NCBI GenBank assembly: GCA_965200675.1
Contig: CBDAUP010000001.1
Span: 67,750-131,749 of the forward strand
Source: Parachlamydiaceae bacterium
Lineage (GTDB): Bacteria > Chlamydiota > Chlamydiia > Chlamydiales > Parachlamydiaceae
DNA length: 64,000 nucleotides
Reading direction: 5' to 3'
Position numbers and translations under genes: made by a program. Positions 48,782-48,989 of this stretch are shown here, in pieces. The notes beneath the pieces were generated by a model, which was not told where the DNA came from, did not search any database, and was given only the letters and a program-made list of their open reading frames with translations. How positions within the stretch are numbered: the first letter of the stretch is position 1; every line of letters begins with the position of its first letter.

Positions 48782-48881
48782 TGAAAAAGAAAGAGCCTAG
48801 CACGTAAGCTAGGCTCAAAAACATTTGGATTCCTATATGTTTCGCAGCATCCGGAATCCAATTTCCATAGAGAAATACTCT
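48782..48881 (-). ncRNA. predicted about 100-nt minus-strand small RNA in the rep-like leader (countertranscript candidate), copy 1
   Basis: Minus-strand promoter TTGCAG (48911..48916) - 17 nt - TATAGT (48888..48893). Then an 8-bp stem (48826..48833 / 48853..48860), a 9-bp GC-rich stem (48793..48801 / 48808..48816) and TTTCTTTTTC on the minus strand. Confidence 0.4.
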
Positions 48882-48989
48882 AATCAGACTATATAAAAAA
48901 GTATATTTATCTGCAAGAGATAAACTTTTTTTATCTTCTCTTTAGACTGCTTCTCTTGGGAAAACCCTTTTTCCTTAGGAGCTTTTATT

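Follow-up and report, generated by a model that had tools for sequence, protein, structure and literature searches.

A predicted structured antisense RNA in the leader of a phage-O/DnaD-type initiator gene of a chlamydia-like bacterium

The 64,000-nucleotide stretch of DNA analysed here in full (the window, C1:67750-131749) carries two copies of a rep-like gene whose product is a relative of phage-O/DnaD-type replication initiators, and upstream of each copy, on the opposite strand, lies a predicted gene for a small RNA (sRNA; Table 1). Both copies belong to a 1.27-kb segment that is present twice (48335-49605 and 53842-55113) with 88 differences. The sRNA gene overlaps no upstream gene, the nearest one upstream of copy 1 ending at 48303. 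Its terminator, described in the original prediction as a perfect 9-bp GC-rich stem followed by a T-tract, can be read in the sequence and is also in the list returned by the terminator scan. The promoter elements TTGCAG and TATAGT are present, 17 nt apart, as had been claimed, but "near-consensus" was an overstatement: the -10 matches consensus at five of six positions, while the -35 matches only in its TTG (3/6), which is why the promoter is absent from the promoter scan list. Similarly, the first hairpin has the 19-nt loop first described, on a stem of 9 rather than 8 bp. The second copy at 54290..54424 proved to be the same unit, with promoter, both stems and T-tract kept. Seven substitutions separate the copies within 48782-48916 and none falls in a stem; they are not confined to the loop, as had been supposed, since only three lie there (48834, 48836 and 48841), with three in the spacer between the hairpins (48821, 48822 and 48824) and the seventh in the 5' tail (48876). 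The duplication is recent, which makes conservation between the two window copies weak evidence, and the weight of the argument rests on distant relatives.

Table 1. Positions of the predicted sRNA, its leader elements, the rep-like genes and the units found by a model not trained on them (TSS, transcription start site)
Feature	Position	Strand	Details
Predicted sRNA, copy 1	48783..48881	-	~95-99 nt; TSS near 48881, to terminator U-tract 48792-48783
sRNA promoter	48888..48916	-	-35 TTGCAG 48916-48911, 17-nt spacer, -10 TATAGT 48893-48888
Stem-loop 1, presumed recognition hairpin	48825..48861	-	9-bp TTGGATTCC/GGAATCCAA, 48825-48833/48853-48861; 19-nt loop
Intrinsic terminator	48783..48816	-	9-bp perfect GAGCCTAGC/GCTAGGCTC, 48793-48801/48808-48816; 6-nt loop, then TTTCTTTTTC
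sRNA gene, copy 2	54290..54424	-	offset +5508 throughout; promoter 54424-54396, stem-loop 54333-54369, terminator 54301-54324
Conserved box CAAGAGATAAAC	48914..48925	+	overlaps sRNA -35; in relatives CAAGAGATAAC, CAAGTGATAAAC, CAACAGGTAAAC, CAAGGCTTAAAC
Candidate rep promoter	48751..48780	+	TTGTAG-18-TAAGCT; predicted TSS near 48787, at sRNA end
Element A, TTTCCATAGAGAAATACTCTAAT	48862..48884	+	complement of sRNA 5' tail, just 3' of target hairpin; predicted to pair with B
Element B, TTAGACTGCTTCTCTTGGGAAA	48942..48963	+	U-rich; predicted to pair with A or with the Shine-Dalgarno region
Element C, Shine-Dalgarno region AGGAGC	48977..48982	+	predicted to pair with GCTTCT 48949-48954
rep-like gene, copy 1	48990..49628	+	truncated, 212 aa; homology to copy 2 stops at 49605 beside IS200/IS605 element
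rep-like gene, copy 2	54498..55574	+	full length, 358 aa; phage-O/DnaD-type initiator relative
Untrained unit	L104:564-656	antisense to gene	38.3 bits
Untrained unit	L253:2739-2826	antisense to gene	63.5 bits
Untrained unit	L253:569-655	antisense to gene	59.3 bits
Untrained unit	L254:3796-3885	antisense to gene	60.6 bits
Untrained unit	L254:1078-1172	antisense to gene	35.6 bits

Eight further units were found on five metagenome contigs (one each on L006 and L011, two each on L104, L253 and L254), all antisense and with O-type initiator-like genes downstream, so that all ten units display the layout of a rep-leader countertranscript, with its own promoter and intrinsic terminator, upstream of rep and in opposite orientation. 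In the relatives the terminator starts 188-197 nt before the ATG. The proteins encoded downstream are ~33-42% identical by BLAST or cannot be aligned; that of L006 is 33% identical in the aligned part (tblastn), the 809-aa protein of L011 has its C-terminal domain in common, and one unit of L104 precedes the gene for a 425-aa O-type initiator. L005, a sixth contig, ends within stem-loop 1 and retains only the promoter and the leader box. A covariance model trained on five units recognized both window copies (48782-48872 in copy 1, 89.7 bits; 87.5 bits for copy 2) and matched five units on which it had not been trained, at the expected site and strand, with 35.6-63.5 bits. These untrained units sit just upstream of an O-type initiator or of a ~625-aa gene whose product is akin to the C-terminal part of the 809-aa protein, with a weak initiator match in PHROG. 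On L104 (564-2637 and 2797-4278), L253 and L254 the sRNA-leader cassettes are arranged in tandem, one before the ~625-aa gene and one before the O-type initiator; both cassette genes have initiator-like PHROG matches, and a TraG/TrwB coupling protein gene adjoins the tandem.

In 878 kb of viral contigs, unrelated but picked for partial pattern matches, the model gave no match at E <= 0.01. In overlapping samples of the family (73 genomes), the phylum (401) and the order (401) it matched only the genome of the window. Weaker matches in L108-L111 and L258 were rejected: they are ordinary terminators that follow genes or rRNA, and none has a rep gene in its vicinity. Searches of metagenome, genome and viral contigs with the terminator and stem as a DNA pattern (GCCTAGC..GCTAGGC..GATTC), exact or degenerate, returned chance matches lacking a rep homologue or stem-loop 1, and the leader box pattern likewise gave only chance matches in viral contigs. 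More distant rep relatives, P0023 (L105 2868-2960) and P0008 (L007 2840-2930), have a GC-rich hairpin and one or two further hairpins before rep; these do not match the model (<=12 bits) and may be analogous sRNAs of other families.

The predicted fold of the 104-nt transcript of copy 1 has an energy of -36.1 kcal/mol, compared with -20.5 +/- 2.9 for shuffled sequences (z = -5.4), and that of copy 2 has z = -4.2. In the main alignment of ten sequences, which was fitted to the covariance model and whose pairing register was checked by hand, 94.3% of cells are paired, a share that drops to 22-50% once the 3' partners are slid. Double changes that compensate each other occur in six pairs (U-A/C-G, G-C/A-U and A-U/G-C/U-A among them), four pairs of the terminator stem carry compensatory change in relatives, and the covariation score was reached by none of 500 shuffles. 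MAFFT and RNAalifold recover both helices de novo, independently of the model alignment. The original prediction had suggested folding and covariation as checks of the RNA, and both came out in its favour. With regard to the strand, the 16 core pairs in ten sequences, read on the sRNA strand, comprise 152 Watson-Crick pairs, four G.U pairs and no mismatch; the G.U pairs stand at differing positions in differing lineages, and each would become an A.C mismatch when read in the rep sense. In every unit it is on the antisense strand that a T-tract comes after the GC-rich hairpin. At the loci with genes called (the window, L006, L011, L104, L253 and L254) the upstream neighbours lie on the rep strand, so that the terminator cannot serve a protein gene. 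All units carry TTGnnn-17/18-TAnnnT at the same distance upstream of the sRNA, in relatives as TTGTAG-17-TACACT, TTGAAC-17-TACAAT, TTGATT-18-TAGACT, TTGAAG-17-TACAAT or TTGTAG-17-TATTCT. Pairing, covariation, G.U pairs, the strand of the T-tract and the promoter motif together show selection on an antisense-strand RNA, and on this comparative evidence the unit very probably contains a genuine structured antisense-strand RNA gene.

A 9-nt sequence over the sRNA -35 and spacer (48907-48915, TTATCTGCA) matches the E. coli DnaA-box consensus TTATNCACA at seven of nine positions; it has counterparts in L104 at about 683-691 and in the diverged 'b' units, where TTATCTACA matches at eight of nine. 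This DnaA-box-like sequence could be a binding site for a host factor or for Rep.

On the rep strand, the window carries a second promoter-like motif, GCTTGTAG-18-TAAGCT, whose position immediately before the terminator complement is fixed. A promoter is recognized by conserved hexamers around a spacer that varies in sequence but not in length. The three 'b' units present, in the same ungapped register, GCTTGT(GC/GA/AA)-18-TAAGAT (GCTTGTGC/GA/AA-18-TAAGAT). Counterparts elsewhere read TTGCAA-17-TAGAGT in L253a, TTGATA-18-TAGGAT in L006 and TAGAAT in L104a and L254a, and TAnnnT occurs 20-27 nt before the terminator core in nine of the ten units. This fixed-position, promoter-like motif, together with a long-range helix predicted in the leader, argues that the rep mRNA would span the sRNA region.

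The predicted leader helix involves elements A and B. The TTCTC(G/T)T core of element B is kept in all units, and the A:B duplex of the window is calculated at -20.3 kcal/mol, compared with -6.6 +/- 2.3 for shuffles; A:B pairing exceeds shuffles in six of eight lineages, with lineage-specific extensions, and is more stable on the rep-sense strand in six of eight. Pairing of B with the Shine-Dalgarno (SD) region also has counterparts in the other units (TCTCGT/ACGAGA and similar), and once the part covered by the sRNA is blocked, the predicted folds of all units contain a hairpin that sequesters the SD. Six of the ten leaders are predicted to pass from A:B when free to B:SD when blocked in this way. 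Blocking lowers the mean probability that the SD is unpaired from 0.50-0.56 to 0.12-0.17 in four of the six switching units and from 0.30 to 0.18 in L253a; the fall is from 0.44 to 0.34 in the first window copy and negligible in the second (0.36 to 0.34). RNAalifold found no consensus structure on a MAFFT alignment of the whole leader, so that per-sequence folds and duplex energies are the only evidence for the A:B helix. An open reading frame (ORF) beginning MKK(T/V/S) starts at the complement of the sRNA -10 in L104 (2907-3001), L005 (39-133), L011 (about 1300) and the 'b' units; a strong Shine-Dalgarno, AAGGAG, precedes it in L104a and L005, where it reads across the main ATG. As a part of the mechanism this ORF was rejected: it is absent from the window (ATA in place of ATG) and from L006 (ATGTGA), and its frame relative to rep differs in L005.

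We propose a model in which an sRNA of ~95 nt is made from its own promoter (48916-48888), away from the rep-like gene, and acts as a cis-encoded countertranscript composed of a recognition hairpin and then an intrinsic terminator. The rep mRNA would most likely start just upstream of the terminator complement (near 48787), so that the sRNA would be perfectly complementary to the first ~95 nt of this mRNA. In the free leader, A (48862-48884) would pair with B (48942-48963), leaving the Shine-Dalgarno accessible; sRNA bound to the leader would cover A, whereupon B would fold onto the Shine-Dalgarno (48977-48982) and translation of the initiator would fall. The variable loop would make each sRNA specific to its own leader. 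That the sRNA represses the initiator by pairing with its leader is probable, with its transcription, the overlap and an effect on replication being what we infer; the specific A/B/SD switch, which draws on modelled folds, we put forward as a tentative proposal, below even odds.

Several observations weigh against this model. The covariation counts come from ~5-6 independent lineages in a model-fitted main alignment. The rep -10 TAAGCT is weak (3/6), the promoter scan does not list it, and L011 shows no clear counterpart of the motif. The RNA runs labelled with the source organism come from polyA libraries, in which 12.5 kb of the plasmid gave nothing beyond low-complexity partial matches, and four metatranscriptomes sharing 16S words hold nothing of the region. 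The switch is not seen in the minimum-energy folds of four of the ten leaders, where B:SD forms in both states, and, B being U-rich, A and B taken from different units often pair as stably as cognate partners. The loops, at 18-21 nt, are far larger than the 5-8-nt loops of classical copy-control RNAs. Finally, the faster divergence of the sRNA body may reflect no more than the boundary of a recombining module, for sequences still further upstream have diverged too.

The same data can be read in other ways. The sRNA could simply be divergent from a rep mRNA that it does not overlap, with the rep promoter within 48890-48975, and act in trans through its 5' tail (of the UUUCUCGC type, equal to element B) on the Shine-Dalgarno or on other targets. 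In most units this tail is indeed anti-SD-like, complementary to the (A/U)CGAGGA Shine-Dalgarno region, the leader from sRNA promoter to ATG is the most conserved part (92-99%) and could hold a rep promoter, and promoters of the source organism are not reliably predictable. The tail-to-SD pairing of the window amounts to just 4 bp (CUCU/AGGAG), however, and a scan placed a rep-strand promoter candidate between the sRNA promoter and the ATG in a single lineage, L104a. Conserved stems with unrelated loops fit a cis target better than a common trans target, and the A:B helix requires a rep-sense transcript that reaches upstream of the sRNA start; we therefore consider such an arrangement unlikely.

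Alternatively, the act of transcription rather than its product may matter, with polymerase interference modulating rightward transcription and origin activation as for phage lambda pO. The layout equals that of lambda pO/oop before an O-type initiator, and replication of lambda is affected by pO activity and not by the level of oop RNA (PMC3985674). Compensatory changes and strand-specific G.U pairs nevertheless show selection on the RNA fold, including that of a hairpin other than the terminator, which interference alone would not need, and this makes the explanation quite improbable. The inverted repeats could also function as DNA, for example as transfer-origin hairpins, a single-strand initiation site or a protein-binding site, or as a structure whose function is confined to the rep-sense leader; inverted repeats can form on both strands, related loci occur in conjugative-type contexts beside TraG/TrwB coupling proteins, and the contig of the window has two such genes. 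Against this stand the four G.U pairs, which become A.C mismatches on the complementary strand, the T-tract after the GC-rich hairpin on one strand only, and the promoter motif at a fixed distance upstream on that same strand, so that we regard a purely DNA-level role as very improbable. Coding readings were discarded, because the minus-strand ORFs 48682-48861 and 48424-48591 run through the hairpins from TTG starts and a plus-strand ORF of 19-23 aa (48825-48896) has no counterpart in other units. A type I toxin-antitoxin system would call for a conserved small hydrophobic ORF, of which there is none, and an attenuator for minus-strand genes has nothing downstream on that strand.

The label "rep-like" is justified by matches of the protein to the PHROG profiles 'replication initiation O-like' and 'DnaD-like helicase loader' (1e-8 to 1e-5, the best, O-like, with E = 1e-8), by PF04492 (Phage_rep_O) in relatives, and by the dnaB gene that adjoins one of these relatives. 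The protein from the window has no Pfam or NCBIfam match; the O-like profile match via PHROG places it among phage-O/DnaD-type initiators. An exhaustive search returned 632 distant relatives, most sharing the N-terminal ~100 residues, and closer relatives reach PF04492 and PHROG matches of 1e-15 to 4e-17, one of them adjoining dnaB. The subfamily itself had no match in 41 related genomes or, by DNA and by protein, in 72,556 PLSDB plasmids, and 5.8 billion proteins, searched through a word index, yielded nothing but the proteins of the window itself; by these searches the subfamily is rare. DNA runs show loose ends at 49605, where homology between the gene copies stops. At 55572-55577 the stop of rep copy 2 abuts the stop of a convergent 500-aa gene (55575-57077), leaving no space for terminators between them, and therefore each transcript must run antisense into the other gene.

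Within the duplicated segment, ~490 nt upstream of the rep ATG, a terminator-like hairpin on the plus strand (48461-48500; ACTACTACTA...TAGTAGTAGT, ~10 bp, then TTTTTT) would shield the rep unit from upstream transcription; the terminator scan missed it because its loop exceeds 8 nt. Further upstream in the duplicated leader, an 11-bp direct repeat (AAGATAACTAT) occurs twice in tandem at 48427-48449 and could be iteron- or operator-like.

The genome consists of two contigs, C1 of 230 kb at 34.5% GC and C2 of 2.26 Mb. C1 carries Sel1, ankyrin and F-box/LRR genes and one ParA gene, and its gene content fits a large conjugative plasmid of an amoeba-associated, chlamydia-like bacterium. Two full-length genes for TrwB/TraD-type coupling proteins (14408-15550 and 199875-201020 of C1) are accompanied by several fragments, which suggests duplicated or decaying conjugation modules. 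In the window, 22-bp iterons at 41231-41415 lie beside a 508-aa initiator candidate, and the main replicon of the contig appears to be this separate iteron-type module at 41.2-44.1 kb rather than the unit of rep-like gene and sRNA. For this reason the claim that can be supported is antisense control of an O-type initiator gene, not "copy-number control": where the original prediction proposed a countertranscript-type RNA of copy-control architecture in the rep leader, the structured antisense RNA gene stands, with ten units behind it, and the copy-number part lies outside what the data support.

The curated families of Rfam 15, among them CopA, RNAI, FinP, RNA-OUT and the ctRNAs of pGA1, pND324, pT181 and p42d, gave no match at gathering threshold in the whole window, and at E <= 10 the best match on the sRNA was isrJ, with 23.4 bits against a gathering score of 37. 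The closest parallel in design is CopA/CopT of the IncFII plasmid R1 (RF00042), where a constitutive countertranscript of ~90 nt in the rep leader has a recognition stem-loop and a terminator stem-loop, is directed at a target tens of nucleotides upstream of the rep start and so acts on translation at a distance, and has its specificity set by changes in the loop. The unit described here shares the place in the rep leader and the order of recognition and terminator stem-loops, but its loop is 18-21 nt rather than about 6, no conserved leader peptide is seen in the window, the initiator is of the phage-O/DnaD type, the host lineage is different, and Rfam has no match. The logic proposed for A, B and the Shine-Dalgarno is that of Inc RNA/RNAI of IncI-alpha, IncB and IncK plasmids (repZ/repA), in which a hairpin buries the rep Shine-Dalgarno, translation needs a long-range contact from the antisense target region, and the antisense RNA prevents it. 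They rely on a loop-to-tail pseudoknot together with a leader peptide (repY), whereas the present leaders are predicted to form an extended A:B helix and show no conserved ORF. Like the ctRNA of repABC plasmids (p42d, RF00489) and those of pT181, pIP501 and pGA1, the sRNA would be a small antisense RNA in an initiator leader with its own promoter and terminator; several of those act by transcription attenuation, whereas the leader hairpin before the ATG here lacks a U-tract and there is no model match.

In phage lambda, oop is a short terminated RNA from a promoter just upstream of O that points away from it and is complementary to the transcript carrying O (PMC3985674). Placement before an O-type initiator and direction away from it are shared; oop, however, overlaps the 3' end of cII and regulates cII, while no upstream gene is overlapped in the window. 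The best alignment of the covariance model in the lambda region (L255:298-382, lambda 38597-38681) scores 6.6 bits with E = 9, so that oop is an analogue whose homology is undetectable. Lambda 38597-38681 corresponds to the oop RNA, which starts about 11 nt before O; oop is not annotated in the lambda record used. Within the chlamydiae, the 7.5-kb plasmid of C. trachomatis has antisense sRNAs inside pgp5 and pgp7/8 (PMC7846284). These too are plasmid-borne antisense sRNAs, of the same phylum if the source is an environmental chlamydia, an assignment made from gene content, but they are located within coding genes of another backbone rather than in a leader ahead of an O-type initiator. Plasmids of Proteobacteria and Firmicutes provide textbook cases of antisense control over initiator genes; no description was found of such control in this initiator subfamily or in large plasmids carried by environmental chlamydia-like bacteria. 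Judged from sequence and predicted structure, the sRNA unit is a new, covariation-supported family of rep-leader antisense RNAs that is absent from Rfam, though its kind is already known.

The loops of 18-21 nt are unrelated in sequence between units, and in four close pairs the leader from sRNA start to ATG is 92-99% identical and the ORF 85-97%, compared with 71-93% for the sRNA body. Faster divergence of the sRNA body is what would be expected of a recognition element that targets its own complement. In sequencing runs X4 and X5, from another organism, a relative keeps 48700-48822 and 48945-49090 at 93-94%, while 48823-48944 is unalignable at 80%; this stretch, which holds stem-loop 1 and the sRNA promoter region, is replaced there by two variants containing ...TTGGATTGATCGATGCGATAGG... 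and ...TTGGATTGATCGATAGAAAAGAC..., respectively. A broader reading, possible though doubtful, is that initiator genes of chlamydia-type conjugative elements are served by a portable cassette of sRNA and leader, a translational switch specific to itself, in which the sRNA would draw element A out of the A:B helix and B would close on the Shine-Dalgarno. The recognition loop diverges fast, and co-resident cassettes would therefore not cross-talk; were this so, the orphan sRNA of the truncated copy 1 would be an extra, partly mismatched inhibitor of copy 2. If the antisense control proposed here is correct, the promoter, sRNA and leader switch would constitute a defined regulatory module of about 240 bp, likely to act as an incompatibility or specificity determinant for the elements that carry it, and a compact part that could help to build or tune vectors for organisms that are hard to manipulate genetically.
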